From contig NC_019703.1 in NCBI RefSeq assembly GCF_000317045.1, positions 3,440,934-3,480,933 of the forward strand: a DNA stretch of 40,000 nt, written 5' to 3'. This document shows positions 1-24,814 of this stretch, one piece after another (the stretch's first letter is position 1; every line of letters starts with the position of its first letter). The notes beneath the pieces are model-generated. The model was not told where the DNA came from. It did no database searches and saw nothing but the letters and a program-made list of their open reading frames with translations. Position numbers and translations under genes: made by a program. Source of the stretch: Geitlerinema sp. PCC 7407. Its GTDB lineage: Bacteria; Cyanobacteriota; Cyanobacteriia; PCC-7407.

Positions 1-120
1 AACTACTGACTCAATTTTGTCCTGACGATCGCGAAAATTCTTCAGATCTGTTGCATTTTTTCTAAGTGAAACAACATGCGTAGCTAACTGGCTCAACTGT
101 TGACAATCGTCTACGAGCAT
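1..120 (-). CDS. 5' end of an unidentified gene continuing off the left edge (next gene of the helicase/ATPase operon)
   Basis: The minus-strand ATG at 120-118 overlaps the stop (113-111) of the 1032-aa gene by 10 nt. The frame stays open to position 1 (own translation: MLVDDCQQLSQLATHVVSLRKNATDLKNFRDRQDKIESVV...). It is too short for a family call. Confidence 0.3.
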   Translation of the reverse strand, partial: MLVDDCQQLSQLATHVVSLRKNATDLKNFRDRQDKIESVV

Positions 121-3100
121 GGTGATTCTCCTTTAATTTCATGCGCTAGTTGCTGAAGTTCCAGGAGCGATCGCTCAATCCCAATATAACTGGCTTCCAA
201 ATCCCCTGCTCCAGTACTTCTTAAGTCAGCCAAACTTTTTTGGGTCGATTCCGTCGATTTGTCTACCGCTTGTCTCGCAAGGTTCAGGAACCTGGAAATG
301 ATTTCAACAGGACGCTCACTTGCGCTACTCAAGTATTGGAAAAGAAGCCCTATCTCTTCAGTGTTCTGAATCTTTTTCATCAAATCCAGATAACCCTTCA
401 GCCTTGCATTCTCAAAATTTTTCATCGCTTCCATTAAGGCATCACGATTAGAAATACCAGGAATGCCTGCTCCTCTAACCTGGTCAATTGTTTTAGTAAG
501 GGACGCAACTACTTCTTTTTGTGAAAAGTCTTCACCTAGCTCATTAATAAGTTGCTGGTAAACATTGAGTTGGCGGTCGCGCTCTTCCCGAACAGCTTGC
601 TCCAAAAGCTCATCGATTGCCCTCCGGGTGTCACCAATCGCCTTAAATGGCTGGTCTGTGCTGGAATCTGAAACATCAACCTGAGGTTTCCATTCATCAG
701 CAACTGCCTTTAATGGAGAGACTAATTGTGCTGCATCAATCATTTGAAGTACAGCCCTCCCTCCTTTTGTACAAGGAATCCTTGCTTGCAAGATTTCTTG
801 TAGTTTGGGTTGATTCTTTTTCAAGGTATTAAACAGCTTCTGCCAATAATTGGCTCGGCTGCTAATCTCAACTTTTTCCAGATCAGTAAAAACAGCATTA
901 ATGCGATCCTCCAGGTTGTCCGTAGGACGACCCGCCATCCGACCAGCGATCGCCAGCAGCTCAACTACTGCGGGTACAGGATCCCAAGCTTGCCGGGTTC
1001 GAGTTGTACATTTTGGAATTTCATTTAAGACGAAATTGCTCCATTCCTCCAGTTTCCTCGCATAGATCCGGAAGAAGGTTGAGCCATCAGGAAACTTCCA
1101 ATGCTTATAGTGGTTGTAAAGCAGAATAGCTTGAAGAGCGATCGCTGTATCTCCGAGATCATCAGGCACTAAGGGAAGTAGCAGTTCAACATCTCTGACC
1201 TGTGAGGACGTTGCTGCATTGCGAAAATTAATATTACGTTGCTTAAACAGTTTGTCACTGAACTGATTACGCAGAAGCAATTCTGCGTCCCAATCAATCA
1301 TTGCCTCAATGGCTGGAAAGAGCCTACGTCGTAAATCATCTGCTACATTTTGCGGTAGTTGTGTGCCATTTCGCCATTGATCAAGTGCTTGGAGTTGTTC
1401 CTCCAAACCCGTAGGTAGAGTAACTGAATCTGTCTGGTCAAGTATTGGTAGTTTAGCAACGTTCGTAGAAGTTGCTGTAGTCTCTTTTGCGCGTGTTGCA
1501 GTGCTTGTAGTAGGTAGAGAAATTGGAGTGGAAATTTCCTGCTGTTGAATTCCTAAGGCTGGAAGATCAAACGCTGTATGAATTTCAGGGGCAAGGTCAT
1601 GGAGCTTATTGCCATCAGTCCAGAGATTCAGTAGGGCTTCACGGCGACGAGCATTTTCAGCAGTATCTCTGCTCTCAATTTCTCGAATTAGCATCGCACT
1701 GAGTGTACTGCCTCTAAAATGATCCAGCAGAAGCGGAGAAGGAAAACGACCTAGCTTAAGGTCGGAACCATGATACTCAAGTGTATAGCGCAGAACATCT
1801 TTAATCAGAATTCGGGGATTGAAAACGCCTGGATTGGCTCGATCGCGCATCCGCTCAATGGCTTTAGCACTGAAAGGGTATAGCCCCATACCATCCACTT
1901 GCCCAAACCCGTTATGACATGGAGTCCGATAGTCACAATCCATGCAGGCACTAGGAATTGGATTCCGAGGCTCACCTGTTTCCTCTTCTGCATCTTCCAT
2001 CCATGTCTGGATTTCTTGGTTGCCCAACCGAACTGCATTCAAGTACCGCACTGCCAACTGCTGAACATCTGCTTGAGTAACCAGAGACTGATCACCGACC
2101 GCTTCGATATCCAAATTCACGCTAAAGTCAGTCCGTGTTCGGACTGTATCAATCAAGCCCTGGAAATAACCAGTGGTACAAGCGAGGGCTGTCCGCATTG
2201 GACATAGAGCCACCCCTTCAATCTGCTGTGGACGAGCTAAAACAGCTTCCAAAACTTCTCGATCAATTCCCTGTAACTTGGCAAAGTCTTCAATGAGTAG
2301 AATTAGCTCAACTCCCTGACGGGCTAAAGCTCGGCGCACGTCTAACATCAGTTGCTGTAAATCTTCTCGCCCCAGATTCAGGACTTTGGCAACTGCCTCA
2401 TCCAGGTGCTCATTCAGCCAATCTACAGATGCTTGTTGAACTTCATCATCACCAACAAGGAGTGCGTAGAAGGACCGTGCGGCTGCGCTTGCTTTATCGA
2501 TATCTCGAATGTCGCGAGGTAAATCCTCCACAGAAAATTGTCTTCTTTCCTCCACAATTTCAACGGAGTCACGATGCCCTAGTACATGTATTATGAGTTT
2601 GTGAATGATGCCTTCTTCTCTTAACCAATGTTCTCGGAAATAAGGATCAAAAAGCAGTGCTGGCAACGAATCAATTAAACCATTCTGGGTAAAGGAAAGT
2701 CGATTACGGTCATGTTTTCCACTTGGTCCAACCGCAATCGCTAGATTAGCCAAAAGCTGTTCACGAGCTTCAGCTTCACTAAGTGTATTGGTAGCTTGCC
2801 GAAGGCGGTTCCGATACTCGTCAAATTCAGATCCCTCAAGTCCAGTTAAGATACGTTCAATAATGTCTCTTAGGTTAGTGCCGACCTTAGGAATCAACAG
2901 CACTCGATAATGAGGCTCTTGGCGAATACTGCGGATTCGGGTATTCAACCATCGGATCAAATGAGATTTTCCTGTACCCGAAGTTCCCAACACTGGAACA
3001 AAAGCAAAATCTGGGGTTTCCAGAAAATCCTTCAGAAACTTCTCCTCATCATATGGCACTTTAGATTGAGCTTCGGTTAGAGGTTGGCGATACATCTTAA

Positions 3101-3209
3101 TTGGGTGATGGGTCGCCAAAAAGATGTGATCTTCTGGTTGAGTGGCTTCTACATCCATTACTTTACGAACCATATCTGGATGCCAGCATACATACTTACT
3201 GAAAGTCAT
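111..3209 (-). CDS. Large P-loop NTPase of unknown family (DpdH-like by position only)
   Basis: 1032-aa ORF. Walker A GTSGTGKSH at aa 75-83 and a Walker-B-like strand ELILLIEDF at aa 301-309. ATGA start/stop overlap with the upstream 310-aa gene at 3206-3209. The size and its place after an SNF2 helicase, a DEAH helicase and a ~300-aa gene match my recollection of dpdE-F-G-H order; this is not verified. Confidence 0.6.
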   Translation of the reverse strand: MTFSKYVCWHPDMVRKVMDVEATQPEDHIFLATHHPIKMYRQPLTEAQSKVPYDEEKFLKDFLETPDFAFVPVLGTSGTGKSHLIRWLNTRIRSIRQEPHYRVLLIPKVGTNLRDIIERILTGLEGSEFDEYRNRLRQATNTLSEAEAREQLLANLAIAVGPSGKHDRNRLSFTQNGLIDSLPALLFDPYFREHWLREEGIIHKLIIHVLGHRDSVEIVEERRQFSVEDLPRDIRDIDKASAAARSFYALLVGDDEVQQASVDWLNEHLDEAVAKVLNLGREDLQQLMLDVRRALARQGVELILLIEDFAKLQGIDREVLEAVLARPQQIEGVALCPMRTALACTTGYFQGLIDTVRTRTDFSVNLDIEAVGDQSLVTQADVQQLAVRYLNAVRLGNQEIQTWMEDAEEETGEPRNPIPSACMDCDYRTPCHNGFGQVDGMGLYPFSAKAIERMRDRANPGVFNPRILIKDVLRYTLEYHGSDLKLGRFPSPLLLDHFRGSTLSAMLIREIESRDTAENARRREALLNLWTDGNKLHDLAPEIHTAFDLPALGIQQQEISTPISLPTTSTATRAKETTATSTNVAKLPILDQTDSVTLPTGLEEQLQALDQWRNGTQLPQNVADDLRRRLFPAIEAMIDWDAELLLRNQFSDKLFKQRNINFRNAATSSQVRDVELLLPLVPDDLGDTAIALQAILLYNHYKHWKFPDGSTFFRIYARKLEEWSNFVLNEIPKCTTRTRQAWDPVPAVVELLAIAGRMAGRPTDNLEDRINAVFTDLEKVEISSRANYWQKLFNTLKKNQPKLQEILQARIPCTKGGRAVLQMIDAAQLVSPLKAVADEWKPQVDVSDSSTDQPFKAIGDTRRAIDELLEQAVREERDRQLNVYQQLINELGEDFSQKEVVASLTKTIDQVRGAGIPGISNRDALMEAMKNFENARLKGYLDLMKKIQNTEEIGLLFQYLSSASERPVEIISRFLNLARQAVDKSTESTQKSLADLRSTGAGDLEASYIGIERSLLELQQLAHEIKGESPCS

Positions 3210-4138
3210 TGCTGCTCTCCATGGAGATTGTCTCCTAACCAGGTGATATGAGAGATTCGACTATCAGAGCCATCTAGAAATACCCATACTGCTGTATCTG
3301 AAAGCTTGTCTAACTTTATTAGCCCTTCTTCTTCTATACGACGAAGTGAAACGGATGTGACACTTGAGAGATAGTTATGCTCACGTTGTCCAACTTTTTG
3401 CTCAATTTCGTCCCGAAAAGCTCCAGATTCAAAAACAGGACAATACCTGCCTAGATTCAAAATGAATTCATTAACGGGGATTAGCTCAGAATTCTTTTGC
3501 TTGAATACATCCTTGAGAACTTTTCTTAGATAGTTTGTAGGATCTGGAACAATAGCCTTCTTTCCTAAAACTGAATGTCTCCAGCCGAAGTTCAGGAAGC
3601 AGAACCAGTACTCAAACTGCCGAAGACGCTCGTCATTCAATTTGTATGTTTCACCATCACTTAGTCCCGATATCTGGATTGCACCTACTTGTTCACTGAA
3701 AGACTCCACCATACTTTCTGAATCGGTAGGCGCTTCAAATATATCCTGATGAAGATACCAGGCGCAAAGAATGGCTAGATCATGATTCTCATAATTATCT
3801 AAATTAAAGAAAAGTTGGCTGAGAACGGTTGGAAGAAACTCATCACCGAACTGAGGATTCTTGGCTTTAACGGGCAAGTTTGGATGAAGAGCGATATCCT
3901 CATTGTCTGAAATGAATAGCCCTGATTTTATTCCTTCGTTGATTGCAGCGCGAGCCATGGAATATCTATCTTTCTCAGGTTTGTCTTTGACAAAATAATC
4001 TGGAGAAAGAATCCTCTCCAAAGAAGATTTCTTCTCCCTTTGTCCTCTAGTATTTAGCAGGTATCTAAATACACCTCGAATTCTACTTGGTGTAGCTTCC
4101 ACATTCTTCAAAACACTCATAACCCTAATTCTCCACAA
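3206..4138 (-). CDS. Hypothetical protein (DpdG-like by position only)
   Basis: 310-aa ORF with no motif I recognise. It overlaps the upstream helicase gene by 22 nt and the downstream NTPase gene by 4 nt (ATGA), which implies translational coupling in one operon. Confidence 0.55.
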   Translation of the reverse strand: MWRIRVMSVLKNVEATPSRIRGVFRYLLNTRGQREKKSSLERILSPDYFVKDKPEKDRYSMARAAINEGIKSGLFISDNEDIALHPNLPVKAKNPQFGDEFLPTVLSQLFFNLDNYENHDLAILCAWYLHQDIFEAPTDSESMVESFSEQVGAIQISGLSDGETYKLNDERLRQFEYWFCFLNFGWRHSVLGKKAIVPDPTNYLRKVLKDVFKQKNSELIPVNEFILNLGRYCPVFESGAFRDEIEQKVGQREHNYLSSVTSVSLRRIEEEGLIKLDKLSDTAVWVFLDGSDSRISHITWLGDNLHGEQQ

Positions 4139-6651
4139 AGCAAATTTAGGCGAAAACTACGTCCAGTCCAAATATCCTGCAACTTTCGGTGTTTAGCATT
4201 GGGGTCAGGAATATCTTCAGGCAGGAACATAATGAGAGGAATACCTGATTTAAATGGCTGGTAATAGTGAGAAGGTAAAGCCTTGCCCTGGAGGTGATAA
4301 ATCAATGTGGGAACTTTCGGCATTTGCAATGGCTGATAATCTTCAAACAGAAAAACCAATAATTTGCTAAAAACTGTATGCATTGAAGGAGGAGCCACGA
4401 CGTTGAGAATACCTTCACGAATTAACCGTTGGAGAAGTTTGTTGCGATCGCGCGCTCCCTGTCTGCTCTCTGTTGCCTCATAAAAAATAGCGAGTATTGA
4501 CTCTCCTGCTAAAAGCTCCAAAAGCACTTCACCCAGCTGAAATCGCGCTTCTTGCCATACTGGAAGGGGAACTGGCATCACTCCTGAAAAAGGAACAATC
4601 TTCTGTTGGCGACAAAACGGGCAACCACCACAGGATCGTTCAACATGAACACGACGACGTGGTGGGGTGGAACGAGCGGGAATTTTGTATGCCTCTGCAA
4701 AAATCTCAGAAATGCAACGCTTGGATTGCAGCGCCTCTCGCATCAAATTCAGACTCCGACTAGCCCACTGCTGACGCTGATTACGAGCAGGTTCTACTCG
4801 CTCTTGCCAGGTTTCTGGTACCAGATGATAGTCATTGCGAATTTGAATCGTTCGTAAATTCCGATGTCGTGCGATCGCATCGCTAAAAGCCTCATCAGAA
4901 TCGAAAAGTGCCCGTTGCGGAGGCGCTTCTGCATCAATCTCAATCAAATTAGCCCGGCTCATCAAGGTAAGTGTTCGGATATTCCAGTCTTGGTTCCTTA
5001 CACTGGTTGAGTCGAGGTCAAGGTTGTAGGAAGGCCGGACATCGATTGGAACTTGAAACCGCCCATCTGGTAAAGTTATCTGCTTATCGAACATCGCTTG
5101 CCAGCGCATTCTGCCGCGATCGCTTGTAATGTAGGTTATTTCACTTAAAGCAGAAGCAACGTCAAAATCTGACCGAGTATAAAGCGTTAAGGAGAGGGTT
5201 GCTTTTCCATCTCGACCACCGCGTCCGACCTCTTGATAGAAGCGGTCGATTGTTTCTGGTACACACAAATGCACAACTGCACGAACGTCTGGCAAATCGA
5301 CTCCTAACCCAAAGGCAGAGGTAGCAACAACAATATCAATTCGTTGCTCTCGCCAGTCCTGTAAGAGCTGTAAACGCTCTTGTTGGTTGGATTTACCAGT
5401 CATCTTGGCGCAGCGATTGAAGCCTGCTGCTTTTAACTCTCGATGCCACTGGTCTACATCCGCGACCTTGCTACCGTAAAGAATCAGGGGGCGAGGAAGA
5501 TGATGCAGTGCTTCAATTAAGCGTTGTTTCCTTTCTGCCTCATTGACGCAATAGGCAAACCAAAAGGTTGGTTCCGGGCGCAGTTGGACTGATGAAACTA
5601 ACTGGAATGGTCCTGGTTGACCGAAGAGCGTCTCCAGGGTGTCTAGACAGGATTCAGTGACTGTTGCAGTAAGGAGCAGCGTTGGAAATACTGCTACTCC
5701 TTGCTGTTGGGCAACTCGCAATAAGTCTTTTCGCAAGCCTGCCAATTCCTGAAATTCAGGACGGAACTCATCTCCCCATTGCTCTACAATGTGAGCTTCG
5801 TCAATGACCAAATATCGAAGAAACCCCTGCCGTACTGCTTCATAAACACTGAATGCTAAAGACTCAATTAAGCCCTCTGGGGATGTAAATACAATCGGTT
5901 GAGTCCCTTGTCGGATGCGATCGCGGATTTCCTCGCGGCGCTCTTGTCCATCAACAGAAGCATCACTGTAATAGGCGGTTGCAAAATTAATCCCAGTTTT
6001 TTCTTGAAAGGCTCGCTCTTGATCAATGGCTAACGCTACGGTTGGGACGACGACCACTGTAACACCAACTGGTTTTGACTTTAACCATGCTGGTAGATGG
6101 GCACAGAGACTCTTGCCAGAGCCAGTGGGCAGATTAATCACCAGAGTTGATTGTGCTGGCGCGGTGAGAATTGAGCGAATTGCCTCTCGTTGTCCTGTAC
6201 TCTGATAAGTATTGAAACCTAATTCAGCTAGAAAGGGGTCGCCCCCTTCAGGTTGATAATTTCGGCGCACCACTTCCTGAAATAGAGGCACTTCAGGAGA
6301 TTGCTCTTCGGCTTCTGGCAACCAATCAGGTATCCAGGGGCGGGCACTCAAGAGAAAATACTCTGGTTGTTCATCTAGAATGTCCATACTACTCAATTCC
6401 CAAATCTGCCGAGATTTAGGAAAGGGTGCATTGCGAGGAACCTTTAGGATCGGAGAGTTCCCACCTTGTTGCTCAGCTTCTCGCCTCAAAACGTGACGGA
6501 CGAGCGCGGTTAGATCTCCTGGTGCTGGTGTATGGGAACTTGATGCTTGCAATGCTTTTAGCAGGCGACGCTGACAGGCTTCAGCGACATCATCAGTCCC
6601 TTCCATTGCAACAAAGATATTCAGAGCATCTTGAATGGTTTGGAAACTCAT
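4117..6651 (-). CDS. DEAD/DEAH-box superfamily-2 helicase, RecQ-like core (DpdF/DpdJ-like)
   Basis: 844-aa ORF. Motif I NLPTGSGKSL, motif II VIDEAHIV (DEAH), motif III LLTATVT, motif VI QEVGRGGRDG (compare RecQ QExGRAGRDG). C-terminal Cys cluster SCGGCPFC. ATGA overlap with the SNF2 gene at 6648-6651. Confidence 0.85.
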   Translation of the reverse strand: MSFQTIQDALNIFVAMEGTDDVAEACQRRLLKALQASSSHTPAPGDLTALVRHVLRREAEQQGGNSPILKVPRNAPFPKSRQIWELSSMDILDEQPEYFLLSARPWIPDWLPEAEEQSPEVPLFQEVVRRNYQPEGGDPFLAELGFNTYQSTGQREAIRSILTAPAQSTLVINLPTGSGKSLCAHLPAWLKSKPVGVTVVVVPTVALAIDQERAFQEKTGINFATAYYSDASVDGQERREEIRDRIRQGTQPIVFTSPEGLIESLAFSVYEAVRQGFLRYLVIDEAHIVEQWGDEFRPEFQELAGLRKDLLRVAQQQGVAVFPTLLLTATVTESCLDTLETLFGQPGPFQLVSSVQLRPEPTFWFAYCVNEAERKQRLIEALHHLPRPLILYGSKVADVDQWHRELKAAGFNRCAKMTGKSNQQERLQLLQDWREQRIDIVVATSAFGLGVDLPDVRAVVHLCVPETIDRFYQEVGRGGRDGKATLSLTLYTRSDFDVASALSEITYITSDRGRMRWQAMFDKQITLPDGRFQVPIDVRPSYNLDLDSTSVRNQDWNIRTLTLMSRANLIEIDAEAPPQRALFDSDEAFSDAIARHRNLRTIQIRNDYHLVPETWQERVEPARNQRQQWASRSLNLMREALQSKRCISEIFAEAYKIPARSTPPRRRVHVERSCGGCPFCRQQKIVPFSGVMPVPLPVWQEARFQLGEVLLELLAGESILAIFYEATESRQGARDRNKLLQRLIREGILNVVAPPSMHTVFSKLLVFLFEDYQPLQMPKVPTLIYHLQGKALPSHYYQPFKSGIPLIMFLPEDIPDPNAKHRKLQDIWTGRSFRLNLLCGELGL

Positions 6652-9600
6652 TGGGGTCGTGCCTCCCCATTGGGTAATTTCGGCAGTCGTCCAGAGACAA
6701 TGTAGAACCCGACAGAATCAAGACGAATCGCAGGAGTAAGAATCCCTTGAACGAAGATTTGACTTAGTGCTTTCTCCAGTTCATATTCTTGAGCCAGTAG
6801 AGAATCTGAGTGAGCTTGGGCTTGACGCTCTAGACGAAGGCGGAGTTGCTCCACTCGATCGCCCAACTTGCGCTTTGCCTGGGTTGCATACCGCTGACAG
6901 CGATCGCGGAACTGCTGCCGCTCTCGAAGAAGTTTTTCAGATCGGCTTCGAGTGCCTCGACAGAAATACTCCCAGTCATCTTGACTAATAAATTCATCTA
7001 AAACGAATGACCGATCCTTTGCCAGGTTGTAGTCTCGTGTTGGTTCTCTGTGTTGTGAGTACGGACGTTGAAGAATCTCTAATAACTTTGGATCTGTGAC
7101 TGGTTGCATTCCCGTAGTCATCACCAAAGTTTCTACTGAAGGTGGGAAGAGAGCATCAGTTCGACGAATCAGCGCTGTTCTATTCGACTGGGGCCAACCA
7201 TGACTTTGCAAGACTTCATCTAATTTAGACAGGTTTGTTTCTACAACATAATCGAACCGAAAGCCTACCCACTCTGCGCCTTCACTCGATGGCCAACTTT
7301 CCTCATGCCGCCAAAGGGCAAATGCTTGCCCCCGGTCATCCCAACGGACGAAATGAGCTAGTGCATCCAGAAGAGGATGCCCAATGCGGTAAACAGATAC
7401 TCCAGGCTGTTGAAGAGCCTTTCGTCGATTGTACGTTCCTGTTTCAGCAAAACTGCTTGAGAACAAGCTGTAGAGATCTTTGACTGGAACCAGTGTTTCT
7501 CGACGACCTTTCAGGCTAGGTCGGTAAGCAAAGATGTCATCAGAGTTCTGATCCTGTCCATCCTGGAATTCTCGCTTGAACTGCAATGCTTCATAAACCC
7601 AGCCTTCCACCGCTTGCTTAAGCTTTCGATGCTGAGAGTCATAATCCTCAAGTTCCTGGAAATACTGAGCAGCACTTTCTTCCAGCGCATCAATTTCGTC
7701 TAAAGCATTTTGCTCGTCAATACTGACCTTTTCTCTGTGAATCTCATCATGAACGATCGCAATGGATTGCTTTAACCCATAGGCACCAGATTCAAATAAT
7801 GCCTCAGCCAGATCAGGTAACTTGCGATCCACATAAAACTGAAGACTGGCGATAGACTCTTGAAAGATCTTGAAGCCGTCTTTCAAGACTTGAAACCAGG
7901 CATCGTGCAGACTATCTCCTACGTCCGCTCCCGCAAATACAACGTAATTCATTAATTGTCGCCGCCCAATGCGATTCATTCGACCGTGGCGCTGCTCTAA
8001 ACGATTGGGTGACCAAGGCAAGTCAAAATGAATCATCCAGTCAGCAAACTGTAAGTTGTGCCCCTCTTCTCCAGAGGCATCACACACCAGAACAAAGCAT
8101 CGAGGACTTTCTAGAAATTGGGTTGTATTAGCTTCAACCTCATCAATCGATTGTCCTACTTGGTAAGTTGCGATCGCCTCTTGTCCAAAAGCCTCTTTCA
8201 ACGGAGCCACAATCTTTTGACAGGTATAACTAAAACTGGTGAAAACAACTGCTTTGAACGGGCGATCACCATTTTTCGTTCTTAACGTTGTCAGCACCAC
8301 TTGTAATTGGTCAATGCGATCGCCAAACTCAGGTTGCTGCTGTAAGTTGTCTAACAGAGTTTGTAGAATATTACTTTCACCAGGAAAGAGAGGCGTTTTG
8401 AGAAACAACTCCGCTTCTTCACCAAAATCCTGAATCAGCGTTGGAGAAACACCACCACTTAGACGAGCAGAAATCAACTCCTGCAAAAGACCAAGCTCTG
8501 TCCCGCTAGCACGAAAAAGTAAAAGAAAGACGGCTCTGAGCTGCTGCCAGTCCTGATAATCAGGGTCATTCTTCATTCCCAAGGCGCGAACACGCCACTC
8601 ATCCAAATACTCGTGGACAATGAGCGATCGCTCATCTTCGTCATATTCAACTCTAGGAATCACACCCGATTGGTCAAGCAGTACATCCTCCAAACTCTCA
8701 CGGCGATTCCGCAGCATTCGTCGATGTAGACGGTAAGTATCACTAATATGAGTACGAATGGAACGAATTACCCTACTTTGTTCTTCAGAATCAACCTGTA
8801 GAGCTTGCAGGATGGTTTCTAGTTGATTCAACAGTAAAGATAAGCGCTCATCAGAGTTGAAGAGATTTTTGAGCTTACTCAAAGTCATCTTAAGAACGAA
8901 ACTTGAAGCATCCTCTTTGAAGGACAGCAATACCCGCCCGATGTCCTGACGTAATCGTACTCGCTCTTTGAAACCGTCCAGATCTTCAAGGCGGTAAGTC
9001 ATGGGGTCGAGCAAGTGCAGCATCGCCAGAAAAGCCTGTTCATGGTTTAGCGCGGGGGTAGCTGAAAGTAGTAGAACTTGCTTTGCTTGGTGGGCTAATT
9101 TTCTACAAAATTCAAAACATTCTCGCTGTGCTGAGTCCGGTGAAACTGCCATTCCTGCAATATGCTGAGCTTCATCCAGAACCAGAAAATCAGGTTGGAA
9201 TTGAATATGAGTAGAGCGGATGTCCTCAATCGTCAACCAGTCAATCTCTTCGGAGAGATAAAACTTGGCTTCGAGTTCCTGTTGCCACTGCTTCAGCAAA
9301 GGCTTCGGAGCAATTACCAGCACTCGTCCCGTTGGGTTATCCAACAGGTACTGCCGTAATATGACCCCTGCCTCAATCGTCTTGCCCAAACCAACTTCAT
9401 CGGCTAGAAGATACCGCTGAATAGAGTCTTCCAGCACGCGACGAACAACTTCGACCTGATGAGGATAAAGCTCGATGCTAGCAGAGAGCAATCCTGGCAT
9501 ACCACGACTAACAGCCCGCTGCTCAATTAAGCACCGAAAGAAATTAGAGCGGCGATCGTAGAAGAAAGGGGTTTCATGCCCTCTTAAGATAAGTACTTCC

Positions 9601-9938
9601 GTTGGGTCATCAATTGGGCGATTACAACGGACATGGATGTCTTGTTCAACGGCGTAGCAGAACTTCCCATCTGGCAAGTCAATTTCGTAGCGGCGATCGT
9701 CGTCATGCCACTTGTAAATCCTTCCAATCAGCCATGACTCTCTCTCCTCAGACCAGAGGTAGCAGCGGGTGTGCCGTTGAAGAATAACTCGTTCCAGTGA
9801 GCTGATCGGAACGGATTGCTGGATTCGCTCCCCTACTGATACAAAATATTCAATCTGAGCATCAGAATAAGAAATATCCTGAAGCCTCCCAGTTCCTAGA
9901 CTATTAAGACGTGAGCGAACTAGAATACCTGGTTGCAT
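6648..9938 (-). CDS. SNF2-family helicase/translocase (DpdE-like)
   Basis: 1096-aa ORF. SNF2 motifs LADEVGLGKTIEAG (I), LVLDEAQHIA (II), LLLSATPALN (III) and HFDLPWSPNRLEQRHGRMNRIGR (V-VI). Preceded by a 136-bp gap after dpdA. Confidence 0.85.
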   Translation of the reverse strand: MQPGILVRSRLNSLGTGRLQDISYSDAQIEYFVSVGERIQQSVPISSLERVILQRHTRCYLWSEERESWLIGRIYKWHDDDRRYEIDLPDGKFCYAVEQDIHVRCNRPIDDPTEVLILRGHETPFFYDRRSNFFRCLIEQRAVSRGMPGLLSASIELYPHQVEVVRRVLEDSIQRYLLADEVGLGKTIEAGVILRQYLLDNPTGRVLVIAPKPLLKQWQQELEAKFYLSEEIDWLTIEDIRSTHIQFQPDFLVLDEAQHIAGMAVSPDSAQRECFEFCRKLAHQAKQVLLLSATPALNHEQAFLAMLHLLDPMTYRLEDLDGFKERVRLRQDIGRVLLSFKEDASSFVLKMTLSKLKNLFNSDERLSLLLNQLETILQALQVDSEEQSRVIRSIRTHISDTYRLHRRMLRNRRESLEDVLLDQSGVIPRVEYDEDERSLIVHEYLDEWRVRALGMKNDPDYQDWQQLRAVFLLLFRASGTELGLLQELISARLSGGVSPTLIQDFGEEAELFLKTPLFPGESNILQTLLDNLQQQPEFGDRIDQLQVVLTTLRTKNGDRPFKAVVFTSFSYTCQKIVAPLKEAFGQEAIATYQVGQSIDEVEANTTQFLESPRCFVLVCDASGEEGHNLQFADWMIHFDLPWSPNRLEQRHGRMNRIGRRQLMNYVVFAGADVGDSLHDAWFQVLKDGFKIFQESIASLQFYVDRKLPDLAEALFESGAYGLKQSIAIVHDEIHREKVSIDEQNALDEIDALEESAAQYFQELEDYDSQHRKLKQAVEGWVYEALQFKREFQDGQDQNSDDIFAYRPSLKGRRETLVPVKDLYSLFSSSFAETGTYNRRKALQQPGVSVYRIGHPLLDALAHFVRWDDRGQAFALWRHEESWPSSEGAEWVGFRFDYVVETNLSKLDEVLQSHGWPQSNRTALIRRTDALFPPSVETLVMTTGMQPVTDPKLLEILQRPYSQHREPTRDYNLAKDRSFVLDEFISQDDWEYFCRGTRSRSEKLLRERQQFRDRCQRYATQAKRKLGDRVEQLRLRLERQAQAHSDSLLAQEYELEKALSQIFVQGILTPAIRLDSVGFYIVSGRLPKLPNGEARPQ

Positions 9939-10074: not shown

Positions 10075-12210
10075 TTAGGGTTGGGCTAGGAGTTGTTTCA
10101 AATTGCCAGAAAATTCTCTTTCCGCCAATTCATCTTCTGCTTGAGCAGTAGGAGTGGTGAGATGCTTTAGCAACGATTGAAACCGTTTGTAAAAGACATA
10201 GGTATTATGAAACCCACGCCTGCGATTGCGATTATTATTTCTAAAAATTACTACTTCAATTCCAACATCCTGGCAAATCGCGCAATCGCAAACTTTCCAG
10301 GGCTTTTCCTCTAAAACTTCCCGGTATAGAGTCTCATGTGTAGCTCGTCGCTTCGCCTGAGCATCTAGATCAACTTTGCCATCTCGTGGCAGTTCAACCA
10401 GTTCATCGTAGGCTAGCACAGCTTCAAGAGTTGCCTCGACTCCAAGTTTATTCCTGTCGAACTCGCGCAATGCTTTGAGAGCATCTTGCTCTAGCTTGTG
10501 AAGCGTTGGCAAATCAGCGACTCCAGCAGCTACTAGCTTTTTAACCCGCAAACCATTATTTGCAACAGGCGGCACTCGGATCGCTGCGTAGCGTTTCCCC
10601 GTCATCGTATGATAATTTGCTGTTACCCCTAACCAAGCCTGCCGTAACGGGCTTGCCGAATCACAGCTCGTCACTCCCAAGTGCCGAAAGGCAGGGATTG
10701 TATCGATTCGAGCAACACCAAATAGGTGCATTCGCACATGGGATTGAAGGCGTGGGTGTATTGCTTCAAGAATGGGCAGAATTTCGGAGTTTTGGGCACG
10801 CGCCAATCCTCCTAGAGCAATATAGTCATATCCCATTTGAATCAATTCTTGTACCGCTGCTGCATAAGATTCAGGATCCCAACCCTGTGCCACGCCGATT
10901 GGAGTAAATTGATAGCCTCGTTCCTGGTGTTTTCCTAGAAACTCTGCTGCATTTTCAAGTGTTAGTTTGTATCGAAGATCTCGAATGCCTGGAACCGCAA
11001 ATGGACCAACAATAAGGTGATCAATACTGACCCCAAAATCAAAACCAAGGCGTTCATAGTAATCTAAAATTTCATCTGTATTGTAAGGAGGAAGATCCTC
11101 TTTGATATAGCTAAATGCACCGCAATCCCCCATGATCTTTCCAGGGAAACGAACAAATTTATGAACCCCTAGTTCTTCGACTCTATTTCTCTTCGTTTGA
11201 CTTTCATCTATGACAGCTTTAGAGACTAAAACCCCATCATAGTTAGGGGATGGAAAGAAGATTTCATGGGCGTAAACGTCATCAGCATAGGAGTCATGCC
11301 GATTAGATCCAAAGGAATCTGTTAAGAAATTGTACTCAGGATCAACCCGATCATCCCATTCAGGAATAAAGTACTGCATACCCAAGTGAACATTCGGGGC
11401 AGACGGTAAATCGGGGATGGGAATGAATTCACCTTTGTTTTTTTTCGTGGTGACTTGCTTAGGCTTGCTGCTTATTACTAATTGAGGTAGACCTAAATCA
11501 AGTTCAAGTTGAGTCGTTCTATCAATAATTTCCTGAAAACGACAGGGATCTTGGTGAATTTGTTCAAATAGATCAGGTTGCTCTGCCGCAACTAAAGCAA
11601 ATTGTTTGAATAAAAAACCCTTTAACCCTACTGAACCAAAACCGTACTTCTTTGCCTCAGCGTTCGTGAGAGGCAAGACAAATGCTTGAGGATCTGATGT
11701 CTTAATTAAGTTAGAGCAACTCCCTGGAGCTAAGAAAATCCAAGTTTGCTCCTCGTAAAGGGTGAGCGGTAATGAGATTGCTCTTAAATACTTTTCACCT
11801 AGTAGAACAAAAATCAAATCATAGTCAGAAATTATTTTTTCAAGTGATTGATGTATCTTTAATCGTTTTGCCCAGTCATCTATCTCATGCCCTTTCATTG
11901 TGTTGAAAGTGACTTCGTAGGGTGCAATTACACGATCTTCAGGAATCAATCCATAACCTGCTGAGATGATAAATACATCAATTTCAGGCTTCTCTAAAGT
12001 CTTCCGTAGAGTTCGCACACCCTCCATCAATTGGGTATGCTGCATCCCCGTATACATTTCTCCTGCCGGAGCCATAAACTCAGAAAGCTGCTTTTCTCTT
12101 TTGCGGAGTCGAGCAGCGTGCGTAAAATCTTCCTGAGTGAGTTGATTCTCTGGCTTAAATCGCTTTTCCCCGGTACACGATGTAATGATTAAGACACGGG
12201 GGTAGCGCAT
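10075..12210 (-). CDS. dpdA: DpdA-like DNA-guanine transglycosylase (TGT-fold) fused to an N-terminal ~235-aa domain of unknown function
   Basis: 711-aa ORF. From about aa 275 it shows TGT-like features: [25 protein letters not shown]. The TGT zinc motif CxCxxC...H is present as CDCAICQ-(22 aa)-H near the C-terminus. The start overlaps the queC stop by 22 nt. The N-terminal part ([16 protein letters not shown]..., [19 protein letters not shown]) is not TGT-like and is joined by a Lys-rich linker ([15 protein letters not shown]). Confidence 0.75.
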
Positions 12211-12911
12211 CGGTTCTCCTGTTCGTACAATTCTCGCCCTACTAACGTTGCCAGATCGGGTCTACCTGCGTCAATCAGGGCACGATCGCGAATCCGGCAA
12301 GAGTCGCACAACCCACAGGGTTCATCCTCGCCTTGATAGCAAGACCAGGTGAGGTGAATCGGAACACCTAGTTGTAACGCACGATGCACGATATCTACTT
12401 TGGAATCCATAACCAGTGGAGCCACAAGCTTAGGGGCATGCCCTTCTAATCCAGTCTTGGAGGAGAGGGTTGCAAGATGCTGGACAGCTTCTAGGTACTC
12501 CGGTCGGCAATCAGGATAGCCAGAATAGTCTACGGCATTGATTCCCAAATAAATTGCTTCGGCTCCTTTGGCTTCAGCCAGGGATAGAGCGATCGCCAAA
12601 AAGACCGTATTCCGCCCCGGCACATAAGTAATGGGAATCACACCAGGCTTCACACCGTCAGTCGGCACATCCACAGCCTGGTCAGTCAAGGCAGAACCGC
12701 CCCACTGCGCCAAATTCACATCCACCACAAAGTGTTCCTTGATCCCCAAATGTTCAGCGACCCGCTTAGCAGCAATGAGTTCGCGATCGTGCCTTTGTCC
12801 GTAATGGAGCGATAGAGCAATCAACTCGTAACCATCAGCGATCGCCTGAGCAGCAGAGGTCGATGAATCCAGACCACCAGACAATAAAACAATAGCTTTG
12901 GGAGCATTCAT
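12189..12911 (-). CDS. queC: 7-cyano-7-deazaguanine (preQ0) synthase QueC
   Basis: 240 aa. N-terminal PP-loop [11 protein letters not shown]-terminal zinc Cys cluster [20 protein letters not shown]. Typical QueC length. Confidence 0.9.
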
Positions 12912-12935: not shown

Positions 12936-13166
12936 TTAGCTTGGCGATCGCCAGATGGGTTTTACGTCACTTTCAAATTGGTAAAGTTTACGGCAAAGGT
13001 GCCCGATCTCATCACTGCGAGGTTGTCCGCTTTCTCCGAAGGTTTCTTGCTCCATGTCCTCGCTCATTTGGTCATAAGGATCGTCATCCTCGTGGTTGTC
13101 AGCCCAATATTCCAGGGATGCAAGGATGATGGAAAGTTCGCGGGGGGATAGTTCAATTTGAGCCAC
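12936..13166 (-). CDS. Small highly acidic protein, unknown function
   Basis: 76-aa ORF between queE and queC. It has a GTG start preceded by GAGAGGTG 7 nt upstream, and the queE stop lies 14 nt upstream. By my count it has 18 Asp/Glu against 6 Lys/Arg. No family recognised. Confidence 0.5.
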   Translation of the reverse strand: MAQIELSPRELSIILASLEYWADNHEDDDPYDQMSEDMEQETFGESGQPRSDEIGHLCRKLYQFESDVKPIWRSPS

Positions 13167-13180
13167 TAGCTTTCACCTCT

Positions 13181-13819
13181 CTATCGAATGTTGGTGAACT
13201 TATGAGTTTGTAAGCTAATCCGCCATTCGGAATGGCTGAGAACGTACTCGAAGATTAGCGAGTAGCTATCAGGCGTGCCCCATTCCGGTTGGAGCAACTT
13301 AACCGCATGAGTTGGAATTCTGGCACCGTGCTCCTCCGCCCATATCAAATCAGAGCGGTTGGCAACGACAACCTTCAATTCACTGACCTGAGAATAAATA
13401 CTTGCATGAGGAGGTTTAGAGGGCTTAGGAGAGAATGTGACCCAGTCAAAACTGCCACTAAAGGGGTGTGCGCCGGAAGTTTCCAGATGCACTCGCAACC
13501 CTGCGTTTCTCAAACCAGAACTGAGGCAGGAGAGGTCATGCAACAAGGGTTCGCCACCTGTGATCACAACGATCGCCGGATTTGCTGCTTTAGCTTCTGC
13601 AATCAGGTCAGTCGTATGGCGTTGGGGATGGCGATGGGCATTCCACGAATGTTTGGTATCACACCAGGGGCAACCCACGTCGCAGCCTGCCAAGCGAATA
13701 AAGAAAGCATTTGTACCTGTCCACGCTCCCTCACCTTGAACGGAGTGGAAGGTTTCCACCACTGGCAAGACTGCCGAGGCTGTTTTAGCGGTTGAGGTCG
13801 TGGGGATCAGGCTTGTCAC
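13181..13819 (-). CDS. queE: 7-carboxy-7-deazaguanine synthase QueE (radical SAM)
   Basis: 212 aa. It starts ...FHSVQGEG and carries the radical-SAM cluster motif CDVGCPWCDT (CxxxCxxC). Size and context between queD and queC fit QueE. Confidence 0.9.
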   Translation of the reverse strand: MTSLIPTTSTAKTASAVLPVVETFHSVQGEGAWTGTNAFFIRLAGCDVGCPWCDTKHSWNAHRHPQRHTTDLIAEAKAANPAIVVITGGEPLLHDLSCLSSGLRNAGLRVHLETSGAHPFSGSFDWVTFSPKPSKPPHASIYSQVSELKVVVANRSDLIWAEEHGARIPTHAVKLLQPEWGTPDSYSLIFEYVLSHSEWRISLQTHKFTNIR

Positions 13820-13854: not shown

Positions 13855-14244
13855 CTAGTCGTCTTCGTACTCAGCCCAGGAATTGGGGGTTTCAGACACG
13901 GCGACCTTGAGCTTTACATCTGAGGGCAATTGCTTTTTCGTCTTTTCATGGATGTATTGAGCAATCATCTCAGCAGTCGTTTCATAGCCTTCAGGGAGGA
14001 CTTCGTTCAAAACAGAGTGGTCAAGCCCCCCTTTGAGCAAGTCTTGCTTTGCCCAGCGAAGCGTGCGGAAGTCCGCTACCATAACGGGATGAGGACAGTA
14101 TTCGGAGGTATGAAGCTGGCTAGAAGTTGCTTCAATGCGTACCCGGTAGGTATGCCCGTGCATCCGCCCACAAGGACCGTCATAGTCTCGAATGTAGTGG
14201 GCAGCATCGAAGGTAAATTCAGTCGTCAGTTTCCACTTGGGCAT
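13855..14244 (-). CDS. queD: 6-carboxy-5,6,7,8-tetrahydropterin synthase QueD
   Basis: 129 aa. FDAAH...CGRMHGHTY catalytic Cys/His motif of the PTPS/QueD family. First gene of the que-dpdA block. Confidence 0.9.
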   Translation of the reverse strand: MPKWKLTTEFTFDAAHYIRDYDGPCGRMHGHTYRVRIEATSSQLHTSEYCPHPVMVADFRTLRWAKQDLLKGGLDHSVLNEVLPEGYETTAEMIAQYIHEKTKKQLPSDVKLKVAVSETPNSWAEYEDD

Positions 14245-14562: not shown

Positions 14563-15303
14563 TTAGAAGGTGCTGAGAGATCTTGAAATCCATATTTCAG
14601 ATAGATAAAAGTCTCCCTGTTGCTCCAATTCATAATCACCTAGCAGCAAGGCTAACCATACTTTGACAAGCGTCATCTGTGGGTCATGCCGCTGTAGTCT
14701 CTGACAGAGTTGGGAAAATGTCACTTTTAACGTGGATGATTGGACCCATTCACCTAGCTCTCGGGAAATTGCCTCTATCCAGGCAGATACGTCCTCGTCG
14801 TGGGCGATCGCCAACATCTCTTGCACCTGTATGAATTCGTCGTCAGGATCCACACAAGCCCGCAATCCACCCTTCTCCCCTTCCCCCGCAATTGAAGCTT
14901 CTGCAACCTCTTGAGAGGATCGCTTGTGTTGACACGGCTTTGGTTGACGTGTCAGTTCAGACAGGTCAAGATGCATGGTCTGCTGTATCAGTTCGTTTAG
15001 CCAATCCTCTGCAATGAGCGGTTCTGCCTCAACATCTGTCTCCTCCCAATCACTCAACCACCGCATTGCTCTTTGGTGATGTAGATCCGCTAACTGGGCG
15101 ATCGCCCATCCACCTAACCTCAGCTGGTCGATTTTCGACATCTGTCGCAGAACGGGTTCCACATTTTGCCACAGTTGATTCAAGTTAGCCTGTTCTGGCT
15201 CAACTAATGCTTGCTCGAACAATTGTCGGATCGCTATTTCTGCCTGAGCAAACATAGGGAAATTCCTTACTTTGCCTTTAAAGGACAGGGTGCGATCGGG
15301 CAC
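14563..15303 (-). CDS. Hypothetical protein (acidic, Trp-rich)
   Basis: 246-aa ORF. A more likely start is the ATG at 15255 (MFAQAEIA...), preceded by AAGGAA and lying 11 nt after the stop of the upstream gene. No motif recognised. Confidence 0.5.
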   Translation of the reverse strand: MPDRTLSFKGKVRNFPMFAQAEIAIRQLFEQALVEPEQANLNQLWQNVEPVLRQMSKIDQLRLGGWAIAQLADLHHQRAMRWLSDWEETDVEAEPLIAEDWLNELIQQTMHLDLSELTRQPKPCQHKRSSQEVAEASIAGEGEKGGLRACVDPDDEFIQVQEMLAIAHDEDVSAWIEAISRELGEWVQSSTLKVTFSQLCQRLQRHDPQMTLVKVWLALLLGDYELEQQGDFYLSEIWISRSLSTF

Positions 15304-15776
15304 TCACAAGGTTCTAGACGGATCGGTGGCTCAAACTCCGTGATGCCGTATCGCTCCTTCAACGTTACCAAAACCTTTTGTAGGTAGGACTTCACCTGCC
15401 CATTGGTCATACCCATGCAATGGATTGGCTCAGTTTCTGCCAGTTTGTCTGACCCTCTCCACACCGTCACGGCTACTGCATGAAGGTGGGCGTCCTTCCT
15501 TGCTTCTCGGTAAAGGTAAAGTAGCCCGATCTCTGGAAACTCAACTGGAACAGCGATTTTATCTGTTTCCGAAACCGTTGGTTCCTGACGTTGAGACGGC
15601 GATCGCTTCCTCCGTCGTTTGGCATTACTTTCAATTCGATGACGGTAGTGCGATCGCCGTCGGTGACAGCGCTTAGGGTTCCAGCAATCATCACCCGACT
15701 CACCGTGAAGTTGTTGAGCCTGGGCGACTGAAAGCTGGCTACAGTGCAGACATTTTGCCTGGGTAGGGCGTGGCAT
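15267..15776 (-). CDS. Hypothetical protein with an N-terminal Cys-rich (zinc-ribbon-like) segment and an Arg-rich tract
   Basis: The ORF is open from 15857, but the ATG at 15776 (MPRPTQAKCLHCSQ...CWNPKRCHRRRSHYRHR) is the likely start. CxxC...CxxxxC followed by a basic stretch suggests nucleic-acid binding. Divergent from the recombinase gene. Confidence 0.5.
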   Translation of the reverse strand: MPRPTQAKCLHCSQLSVAQAQQLHGESGDDCWNPKRCHRRRSHYRHRIESNAKRRRKRSPSQRQEPTVSETDKIAVPVEFPEIGLLYLYREARKDAHLHAVAVTVWRGSDKLAETEPIHCMGMTNGQVKSYLQKVLVTLKERYGITEFEPPIRLEPCECPIAPCPLKAK

Positions 15777-15927
15777 CCGCTTGAACGCTGAAGTACAGGT
15801 TTGTAGCGTTAGTTTTTGTGTAGTACAGATAATTATAGTTATTTGGAGTAGAATCAAGAAAATCTGAGCTGGCTACCGCAAATTGAGCCTTCCAGCGCTG
15901 CTCTATTTCAACAACGGGATCAACACG

Positions 15928-16959
15928 ATGGCTGAAGCTGAGCCAAAATTCTACTTCTACGACAAAACGGCTCTCGAAGCTTCTCCTGTCCCCGCTACTC
16001 CTGTTGATCTCCGATGGCAGCGTGTAGAGGAGTTTTTGCAGAGCCGAGAGTTTGCGCCAAACACTCGGAAGGCTTACGAGCGGGAGTTGCGGCGGTTCGC
16101 TAATTGGACAGAGAAACCTTGGCACGCGATTACTGCTCAAGATGTCGATCGCTTTAAGGCATTTCTCAAAGAGGGGCGATCGCAAGACACAACGACTGAC
16201 AATCCAGGAGCAGGGAAGCCTTTAAAGGCGGCTTCAAGTAAACGTGCTCTGGCGGCACTGCAAAGTTTTTTCAAATGGTTGAGCAGTTGGGATTACATCA
16301 GTAAGAATCCGACCCTTGTAATTGAGAAGCCCAAACTGGAGCCGTTGTTCTCTAAAGAACTGAAAGCTTCTGAAGTCCGAGCTTTACAGGAAGCTCTGGA
16401 AAACCGGGGAGAGACAGAAGCGAGAGACACAGCACTCTTGGCGGTGCTGGAACACGGACTCAGGGCTTCTGAGATTGCGGCACTTAACATTGAAGATTAT
16501 GACGGAGTGAGACTGCTTATTCGACGCGCAAAAGCAGACAGTGTGGGCGCTGTTCCTCTGCTTCAGCCTGCTCGAAGATCCCTGGATGCTTATTTAGGAT
16601 GGCGTTTACGGCAGGGATTACCAGTTACTCCCAATTCTCCGCTATTTCTCTCAACTTCTAATAACAGCAAAGGGCAGCGACTGAGCTATTGGGGAATTTA
16701 CAAAATCATGAAGGATCTGGCACAGACAGCAGGGGTTGAGGACTTTCATCCTCATCGTTTACGGCATACGTTTGGAACAAAGTTAGTGCTGAAAAAGATG
16801 GACAGCACATTGGCACGACAATTAATGCGGCACAAATCTGAGGCAAGCTTTGAGCGATACACTCGACGGGCACTAGAGATTGAGGCAGAGAACCAGTTTT
16901 ACGAGGTCTTTGGTGAAGAACATCCTGACGGGGCGATCCATCATGGATTAAACGAGTAG
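15928..16959 (+). CDS. Tyrosine site-specific recombinase/integrase (XerC/D-like)
   Basis: The ORF runs from a TTG at 15883, but the likely start is the ATG at 15928 (MAEAEPKF...). N-terminal SAM-like core-binding region. Catalytic residues are present in GLRASEIAAL (Arg), HPHRLRHTFGT (His-x-x-Arg) and HKSEASFERYTR (His...Tyr). Confidence 0.85.
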   Translation: MAEAEPKFYFYDKTALEASPVPATPVDLRWQRVEEFLQSREFAPNTRKAYERELRRFANWTEKPWHAITAQDVDRFKAFLKEGRSQDTTTDNPGAGKPLKAASSKRALAALQSFFKWLSSWDYISKNPTLVIEKPKLEPLFSKELKASEVRALQEALENRGETEARDTALLAVLEHGLRASEIAALNIEDYDGVRLLIRRAKADSVGAVPLLQPARRSLDAYLGWRLRQGLPVTPNSPLFLSTSNNSKGQRLSYWGIYKIMKDLAQTAGVEDFHPHRLRHTFGTKLVLKKMDSTLARQLMRHKSEASFERYTRRALEIEAENQFYEVFGEEHPDGAIHHGLNE

Positions 16960-16989
16960 CTCAACGCCAATTCAGCATAGCAGTGACCT

Positions 16990-18055: not shown

Positions 18056-18097
18056 CTGGTTTATCCATAATTAGTAGAACTGTTATGGATAAACCAG
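18056..18097. repeat. Perfect 15-bp inverted repeat with a 12-nt loop
   Basis: CTGGTTTATCCATAA (18056-18070) and TTATGGATAAACCAG (18083-18097) are exact reverse complements. The repeat lies between the intact and decayed TnsB-core genes. No U-run follows on either strand, so it is not a canonical terminator. Confidence 0.7.
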
Positions 18098-18116
18098 ATT
18101 TCATTGCTAAGCTTAG

Positions 18117-19031: not shown

Positions 19032-19159
19032 GATAGTACATTTGAACTATAATGCACATTTTTTTAGGAAAAAGTGAGTTGTCAACTGGCAAAAGTTTTA
19101 CCGATGAGGCAACAAAACTTTGCCCTACTCATACAAGTGATAAAAGACACAACCATTGA

Positions 19160-19687: not shown

Positions 19688-19735
19688 CGCTTAAATCCAG
19701 GTCGATTATTTGCTTGTGACCATTCAATGGAACAA

Positions 19736-24459: not shown

Positions 24460-24501
24460 TAGACTGCAACGTCAAAAAGTTGTCATTTTTGGTCTTTTTC
24501 C

Positions 24502-24774: not shown

Positions 24775-24814
24775 CGGACTGAAAGTCGAAAAGTAGATAT
24801 TTTGAGCTTTTTCA

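Follow-up and report, generated by a model that had tools for sequence, protein, structure and literature searches.

The 40-kb stretch of Geitlerinema sp. PCC 7407 DNA analysed here (the window) contains an unbroken open reading frame (ORF) of 711 amino acids at 10075..12210 on the minus strand. The encoded protein, in which a DpdC-like domain is fused to the DNA-guanine transglycosylase DpdA, is the subject of this report. It consists of a folded domain (residues 1-234), a disordered lysine-rich linker (235-277) and a complete DpdA (278-711), as follows:

11509..12210, minus strand: DpdC-like DUF6884 domain, residues 1-234 of the 711-residue protein (Pfam, PADLOC, hhalign and AlphaFold2)
11380..11508, minus strand: disordered lysine-rich linker, residues 235-277 (AlphaFold2 per-residue confidence, pLDDT; variable in homologues)
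10075..11379, minus strand: DpdA (DNA-guanine transglycosylase / preQ0 insertase) domain, residues 278-711 plus the stop codon (NF041059 and 7UI4)

An earlier note on this DNA, made from the sequence alone, had placed the start of a part resembling tRNA-guanine transglycosylase (TGT) near residue 275, and had described positions 11389-12210 (residues 1-274, the domain and most of the linker) as a separate domain of about 235 residues followed by a lysine-rich linker. Both descriptions hold. The NCBIfam DpdA equivalog model NF041059 matches residues 278-679 over profile positions 1-405 of 406 (481.5 bits; cut-off 200), so the preceding 277 residues are extra; MQYFIPEW begins at M278. An AlphaFold2 model of residues 1-274, based on a 57-sequence alignment (mean pLDDT 85.2, predicted template modelling score (pTM) 0.80), predicts an alpha/beta domain ending near residue 234 and disorder at residues 235-262 (pLDDT <50), with the lysine-rich stretch inside. 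In a model of the full-length protein both domains are confident, disorder (pLDDT <50) is predicted at residues 233-260 and the pTM is down to 0.63, which fits the expectation for two domains on a flexible tether. The linker sequence is poorly conserved and its length varies among homologues; in homologue P0111, the inter-domain region is about 100 residues longer. The three N-terminal motifs quoted in the note are present at residues 7-16, 52-61 and 81-99.

The N-terminal domain scored 54.3 bits on Pfam DUF6884 (PF21818; E 2.1e-14; residues 45-148), above the gathering cut-off of 30, and was matched by four separate PADLOC models of DpdC (E 7.1e-10, 2.1e-9, 1.7e-7 and 6e-3). By eye, the domain had been likened both to DUF6884 proteins and to Escherichia coli YaaA/DUF328. 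The first likeness is confirmed by these scores, whereas the second is real but weak: PF03883 matched residues 18-146 with 24.7 bits (E 2e-5; cut-off 29.6), and the NCBIfam YaaA model NF002543 gave 23.8 bits (E 2.9e-5), far short of its cut-off of 204. No nucleotide-binding or ATPase family matched the domain in Pfam, PADLOC or NCBIfam scans, and the suggestion that it supplies ATP use found no support there. The NCBIfam scan returned no DpdC match; its library apparently holds no DpdC model, and DpdC homologues are named "hypothetical protein" in RefSeq.

As a reference DpdC we took the unnamed gene directly upstream of dpdA-dpdB in the canonical island of Enterobacter cloacae plasmid pPOL9A, which scored 470 bits on PADLOC DpdC. 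Its RefSeq start (locus L017, 6953-7918) is apparently placed too far downstream. Extended upstream of the annotated start, the frame begins ...NLITTCTNGK and regains the conserved TCTNGK motif; the full form, 318 residues, is the common length among homologues. A profile of the window's domain and 68 of its relatives of about 235 residues (A2) aligned by hhalign with a profile of 29 members of the enterobacterial DpdC family (A3) over 201 columns, with a probability of 99.2% and an E of 1.3e-19. A pairwise BLAST comparison with E. cloacae DpdC recovered no more than the SAGxG/PYxxTF segment (E 6e-6); the full relationship emerged only with profile methods. The motifs CxxxK, YxG, SAGxG and PYxxTF are common to both sides, and pair as follows:

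ITSCTGEK in the window domain, ITTCTNGK in enterobacterial DpdC
MYTG in the window domain, LYKG in enterobacterial DpdC
SAGYGL in the window domain, SAGLGL in enterobacterial DpdC
PYEVTF in the window domain, PYKATF in enterobacterial DpdC

Earlier work had noted that the DpdC of the Dpd system resembles DUF328 (PMC5699537) and carries DUF6884 (bioRxiv 2025.02.24.639861 / PMC12235509). These alignments make the N-terminal domain a DUF6884-family homologue of DpdC, only remotely linked to YaaA. The earlier note had counted DpdC as missing from the island. Given that DpdC is itself of DUF6884 type and aligns with the domain, the domain is the fused DpdC partner, not a substitute for it.

According to the authors of the Pfam family, CxxxK and LSAxxG probably form the DUF6884 active site (PMC11701544). 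In the window protein these motifs are C12-T-G-E-K16 and I82-S-A-G-Y-G87, respectively. C12 is at least 90% conserved; K16 is at least 90% conserved in the fusions and invariant with the stand-alone relatives, and S83 and G87 are invariant across both. By sequence conservation, C12, K16, Y53/G55/Q57/H58, S83-A84-G85-Y86-G87, E91 and P97-Y98 are candidate active-site residues. When the N-terminal model was compared by Foldseek with BFVD, the best matches included phage proteins labelled DUF6884 or YaaA (E 1e-6 to 4e-4, probability 1.00), with target-normalised template modelling (TM) scores that are only moderate (0.33-0.65). Searches of PDB sequences with phmmer and a profile hmmsearch gave nothing meaningful for the domain, and tblastn against 50,697 phage records gave no match.

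The DpdA half matches the structure of Salmonella DpdA (PDB 7UI4) both by sequence (E 8e-93) and by Foldseek (E 1.7e-38, target TM 0.90, root-mean-square deviation 2.3 A). We mapped the residues named in PMC10164549, the stacking and wedge aromatics among them, by way of E. cloacae DpdA, whose numbering equals that of Salmonella at every residue checked. Asp95 (acid/base), Phe99, Asp130 and Asp256 (nucleophile) correspond to D362, F366, D397 and D517 of the window protein and are all conserved, while His181, Leu236 and Phe265 correspond to Q442, F497 and W526, which are conservative changes. The zinc motif CxCxxC...H is found as C641/C643/C646/H668. These mapped residues and the zinc motif are invariant or nearly so in 55 fusion homologues, and in these alignments the catalytic residues of the DpdA half are intact.

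The fusion is genuine and widespread. PF21818 and PF01702 occur together in every one of the best 120 homologue clusters (53-95% identity), mostly in proteins of about 660-750 residues, and every organism name attached to the clusters is cyanobacterial. The same domain order is found on a Paenibacillus plasmid (689 residues) and on a Deinococcus plasmid (656 residues), there followed by dpdE-dpdF; complete plasmids of four cyanobacteria and one Paenibacillus carry the fusion. In Haloferax, a haloarchaeon, the order is reversed (TGT...DUF6884) in a protein of 964 residues. The cyanobacterial protein P0022 (1205 residues) adds to the fusion a C-terminal DndB-like domain of the DpdB family. The order C-A(-B) of the fusion is colinear with dpdC-dpdA-dpdB of E. 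cloacae pPOL9A and with the triple-domain P0022. RefSeq annotates the fusion proteins merely as "tRNA-guanine transglycosylase DpdA"; the architecture is visible in databases but uninterpreted there.

The fusion gene lies in an operon with the order queD-queE-(76-residue ORF)-queC-[dpdC::dpdA]-dpdE-dpdF-dpdG-dpdH. The last 22 nucleotides of queC overlap the start of the fusion gene, and dpdE starts 137 nucleotides downstream of it. The genes of the operon are:

13855..14244, minus strand: QueD, 6-carboxytetrahydropterin synthase (PF01242, 108 bits; TIGR03367, E 4e-21)
13181..13819, minus strand: QueE, 7-carboxy-7-deazaguanine synthase (best E 2.4e-36, below the equivalog cut-offs; Radical_SAM Pfam match)
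12189..12911, minus strand: QueC, preQ0 synthase (TIGR00364, 223.7 bits; cut-off 150)
6648..9938, minus strand: DpdE, SNF2-type helicase of the Dpd restriction module (NF041062, 1069.7 bits; cut-off 500)
4117..6651, minus strand: DpdF, RecQ-like DEAD/DEAH helicase (NF041063, 923 bits; cut-off 550)
3206..4138, minus strand: DpdG (NF041064, 116.2 bits; cut-off 80)
111..3209, minus strand: DpdH, AAA-type ATPase (NF041065, 897.4 bits; cut-off 450)

The queD, queE and queC genes lie upstream of the fusion in the window and in most of its relatives. The island is cut at position 1, and a further gene that starts near position 120 continues past the left edge of the window; by eye the product of this gene resembles a protein of about 235 residues that follows DpdH in loci L002 and L004, but BLAST gave no match between them. 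DpdD, DpdI, DpdJ and DpdK were not seen in the window, which ends just past DpdH, whereas DpdE to DpdH all score above their cut-offs. In relative L003, a DpdJ-like protein, DpdK and DpdD lie beyond DpdH; in relative L002, the module ends after a 236-residue gene.

We propose that the 711-residue protein naturally joins two enzymes of the Dpd pathway: its DpdA part would place preQ0 in DNA, and the attached DpdC domain would convert it to the amide (dADG) by hydration; we put the probability of this reading at about 0.62. QueD, QueE and QueC, encoded immediately upstream, would make preQ0 locally, and the DpdA domain would exchange guanine in DNA for preQ0, with D517 as the nucleophile and D362 as the general acid/base by analogy with Asp256 and Asp95 of the Salmonella enzyme. 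Acting as a nitrile hydratase in cis on DNA, the DpdC domain would then add water to the 7-cyano group at the same site and so give the 7-amide (dPreQ0 to dADG). For this step the base would probably be flipped out into a cleft that conserved motifs line (Cys12/Lys16, Tyr53 and Ser83). The linker of about 40 residues would hold the second active site near the product of the first, and the protein would work without the DpdB ATPase. DNA modified with dADG would mark self for the downstream DpdE-H restriction module. It is tempting to speculate, by analogy with QueF and nitrilases and from the near-invariant Cys12 and Lys16, that hydration could proceed through a Cys-based thioimidate.

Several observations weigh against this reading. 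Conversion of dPreQ0-DNA to dADG-DNA by DpdC, independent of DpdA and DpdB, is known only for the Salmonella protein (PMC10164549). The N-terminal domain is nearer to generic DUF6884 proteins of about 235 residues (31-57% identity) than to enterobacterial DpdC (about 25% over 105 residues). The invariant His65 of DpdC, in its YxGxH motif, aligns with Gln57, and the histidine of the window protein, His58, stands one position later. The C-terminal extension of enterobacterial DpdC, about 70 residues, is absent: the alignment ends near DpdC position 248, beyond which the window protein continues with the linker and DpdA. A Foldseek search of PDB with the N-terminal model returned only generic Rossmann/flavodoxin-like matches (E of 2.7e-3 or higher, TM about 0.3); none of the top 50 matches listed reached E 1e-3, and the solved structure of YaaA (5CAJ) was not among them. 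Finally, Salmonella DpdA requires DpdB, an ATPase of the DGQHR/DndB family (PMC10164549), and no DpdB is visible in the window.

A further point on the same side comes from the distribution of the domain. Stand-alone relatives on Pelobacter and Marinobacter plasmids (L029 and L030) have no dpd or que genes nearby, and the DUF6884 subfamily of about 235 residues is therefore not restricted to preQ0 chemistry. Another relative, in Azospirillum argentinense p5 (L031), is a single domain within a giant, roughly 9000-residue protein annotated as "AAA ATPase".

The absence of DpdB bears on an alternative that builds on the idea of the earlier note, namely that the DUF6884 domain is a DNA-engaging or base-flipping accessory that lets DpdA act without the DpdB ATPase and so replaces DpdB, amide formation being absent or secondary. 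The note was right that no DpdB is visible: neither hidden Markov model scans of all ORFs of at least 120 residues and of the 76-residue ORF, nor six-frame tblastn with five or six DpdB/DndB queries, found DpdB or DndB in the window, in which the island is cut at the left edge. The five closest relatives (L001, L018, L036, L037 and L038; 80-93% identity) likewise have no DndB in the DNA available, which was surveyed at ±10 kb and also ends at DpdH. Locus L024, a complete element between housekeeping genes, has queDEC and the fusion but no DndB. It has been proposed that YaaA and DUF6884 bind DNA through a basic cleft and flip bases (PMC11701544), as this alternative would have it.

Comparison of about 30 informative fusion loci from genomes, plasmids and metagenomes argues otherwise. 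A DndB-family gene or domain is present in 13 of them, and in P0022 the two are covalently joined; a substitute should not be kept alongside what it replaces. The co-occurrence, even within one polypeptide, means that replacement of DpdB is not the general role of the DUF6884 domain. The lack of an ATPase or nucleotide-binding signature and the near-invariant Cys, Lys and Ser motifs common to the enzyme DpdC, which point to catalysis and not to binding alone, also speak against replacement. The window's clade is consistently without a clustered DpdB in the available DNA; dpdB could sit further downstream, past the left edge, or elsewhere in the genome. All in all, we regard replacement of DpdB as an unlikely explanation. 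About as doubtful is a combined scheme in which the bacterial-type DpdA of this cyanobacterial clade works without DpdB, and the DpdC-like domain both makes the amide and supplies the DNA engagement or base flipping for which Salmonella uses ATP hydrolysis by DpdB. The protein would then be a self-sufficient, ATP-independent, one-polypeptide dADG enzyme carried as Tn7-like transposon cargo. As a whole, the earlier interpretation is partly supported: the domain, its family and the lack of a visible DpdB stand, and its role as a stand-in for missing partners finds no support.

The distribution of DndB/DpdB follows the kind of restriction module, DpdJ-like helicase or DpdE-H, and not the presence of DpdA (L015, L025, L028, L046, L049 and L055 compared with the window, L001, L018, L027, L036-L038, L040 and L053). 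All five fusion loci with a DpdJ-like helicase as the next gene have a DndB-family gene or domain, compared with one of twelve loci with a DpdE-H module (L025). The pattern is a hint of a link between DndB and the DpdJ-type module in cyanobacteria. In 15 related loci (14 distinct contigs), a conserved protein of about 280 residues is encoded directly after the fusion gene (for example L015 2922-3806, L025 5770-6606, L027 12047-12886 and L028 12199-13092); those of the proteins that were compared are 58-68% identical to one another. A DndB gene in the opposite orientation often comes next, and neither the window nor its closest relatives encode the protein. A remnant of 25-30 residues of its C terminus is found just upstream of dpdE in Microcoleus loci without an adjacent fusion.

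A second alternative keeps the domain catalytic but gives it a chemistry unlike that of Salmonella DpdC, either on free preQ0 before insertion or in the synthesis of another 7-deazaguanine derivative. Such a role would agree with the sequence distance from enterobacterial DpdC and the His-to-Gln shift in the YxGxxH motif, and many alternative 7-deazaguanine derivatives are known from phages (PMC10516641). In L034, a stand-alone relative of the domain lies directly after queD-queC, with no DpdA visible in the 10.6 kb seen. On the other hand, the core motifs are common to DpdC, the covalent tether to a DNA-bound transglycosylase favours action on DNA, and NCBIfam and Pfam scans of the island found no additional tailoring genes (amidotransferase, QueF or methylase). 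We consider a divergent chemistry improbable, somewhat more so than replacement of DpdB.

There is very little to recommend the idea that the domain is a YaaA-type module of peroxide stress or iron homeostasis unrelated to DNA modification. It draws on the weak PF03883 and NCBIfam YaaA matches and on database entries that label some relatives "YaaA", but both matches lie below curated cut-offs, the DUF6884 and DpdC matches are much stronger, and the domain is part of a DpdA fusion encoded in a que/dpd operon. The least probable explanation, already refuted by conservation, is a long ORF produced by a frameshift, assembly error or read-through, which the note had named as a possible failing: M278 is exactly position 1 of the DpdA model, as expected for two joined adjacent genes, but the linker is in frame, no Shine-Dalgarno-like sequence was found upstream of M278 (AGGAG stands upstream of the fusion gene start), both domains stand in one protein of similar length in each of the best 120 clusters, whose members come from independent genomes and metagenomes, and complete plasmids carry the fusion as well.

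The preferred reading, a DpdC-DpdA fusion that makes dADG in DNA, can be set beside known systems. The DpdA/DpdB/DpdC system of Salmonella enterica serovar Montevideo (Thiaville 2016; Yuan 2018; Gedara 2023, PMC10164549; 7UI4) has the same DpdA equivalog with its catalytic Asp residues, a DpdC homologous to the N-terminal domain, a gene order dpdC-dpdA equal to the domain order, and likewise adjacent preQ0 genes and DpdE-H. It differs in that DpdC and DpdA are one polypeptide in the window, the DpdC part measuring about 235 instead of 318 residues, without the C-terminal extension and about 25% identical locally. No DpdB, DpdD or DpdI-K is visible in the window, where the island is cut by the edge, and the DpdA pocket shows the changes of His181 to Gln, Leu236 to Phe and Phe265 to Trp.

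Members of Pfam DUF6884 such as Bacillus subtilis YfjM agree with the domain in a score over the cut-off, the CxxxK and (L/I)SAxxG motifs and the predicted fold (BFVD, E 1e-6). Unlike the window's domain with its transglycosylase, YfjM and most other members stand alone, unlinked to 7-deazaguanine genes. With E. coli YaaA (DUF328, PF03883; 5CAJ) the domain has a weak profile similarity over residues 18-146, in line with a published remote relationship and a shared "cantaloupe" alpha/beta fold (PMC11701544), but it scores below the curated cut-offs and occurs in another biological context. Phage DpdA enzymes, such as those of 9g, CAjan and iggy, modify DNA without DpdB and provide a precedent for a DpdA without clustered DpdB beside its own preQ0 genes; they form separate DpdA subfamilies without the DUF6884 domain.

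The families of both halves and the type of Dpd island are already known. By contrast, the fusion, its dominance in cyanobacteria and a DpdB-less DpdE-H subtype are undescribed in the literature searched. As the earlier note had supposed, we found no characterised DpdA with such an architecture there, nor a published description of a DpdC-DpdA fusion, the scope of that literature excluding Thiaville 2016 and Yuan 2018. The largest published survey, made with GATOR-GC, required separate dpdA and dpdB genes and recovered one cyanobacterial island among 2335; in its scoring, neither dpdC nor any restriction gene was present there (PMC12235509). The fusion, with at least 120 clusters here, explains the near-absence of cyanobacterial islands from surveys that seek separate dpdA, dpdB and dpdC.

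Dpd is among the largest restriction-modification systems known, and the cooperation of DpdA, DpdB and DpdC is only partly understood. The widespread fusion, the triple DpdC-DpdA-DndB protein and the reversed archaeal fusion argue for physical coupling of both steps in vivo, despite the ability of the Salmonella enzymes to act on their own in vitro. The clade without DpdB offers a simple test of whether bacterial DpdA universally requires DpdB, and the fusion may offer a compact single-gene tool for installing dADG in DNA.

Some islands that bear the fusion also encode a second, short TGT-like protein of about 307-345 residues (L016 6159-7082, L020 15043-15966, L026 18938-19876 and L021 8782-9816). 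It is flanked by DEAD/DEAH helicases in the two cyanobacterial cases (Picosynechococcus and Oscillatoria), is also found in Paenibacillus and Haloferax, and does not occur in the window. A metagenomic relative (L037 12069-12975; 93-95% nucleotide identity to the window) carries an insertion of about 907 nucleotides near the 3' end of the fusion gene, after residue 690, that is not in the window. The restriction module also occurs apart from the fusion: Microcoleus vaginatus L002 (3206-13812) and most of L004-L013 have DpdE-F-G-H and the 236-residue gene with no DpdA or que genes within ±10 kb, and in L002 this cassette is inserted in a branched-chain amino-acid ABC transporter operon.

Between queE and queC lies a conserved acidic ORF of 76 residues (12936-13166, minus strand), 95% identical in L018 and 54% identical in L001, with no family match in PADLOC, the sole library scanned. 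Two further ORFs of 246 and 196 residues (14563-15857, minus strand) lie between queD and an integrase gene and are conserved (92-95%) only in L018; they had no significant match in Pfam, NCBIfam or PADLOC. No tRNA genes or Rfam matches were found in the window.

A Tn7-like module adjoins the dpd island (15883-23685), with the following parts:

21598-23685, minus strand: TnsB-like transposase
19736-20665, minus strand: TniB/TnsC
19160-19687, minus strand: TniQ
18117-19031 and 16990-17493, minus strand: two ORFs with a Mu-transposase C-terminal domain
15883-16959, plus strand: tyrosine integrase

The same module stands ahead of queDEC and the fusion in L018 and L024, and the dpd island thus looks like transposon cargo. 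The guanine-plus-cytosine fraction is 0.39-0.51 across 1-25 kb, compared with 0.55-0.63 beyond about 27 kb, in most of the housekeeping region. Between the transposase end and purM (24193-25096, plus strand), three small paralogous ORFs, assigned to no family, are arranged in tandem with a period of about 310 nucleotides:

24193-24459, plus strand: ORF of 88 residues
24502-24774, plus strand: ORF of 90 residues
24815-25096, plus strand: ORF of 93 residues

Their common pattern is MSE.LP...G.PC..L.PG..W.(T/S)G......(V/I).F VP.ELPQ.

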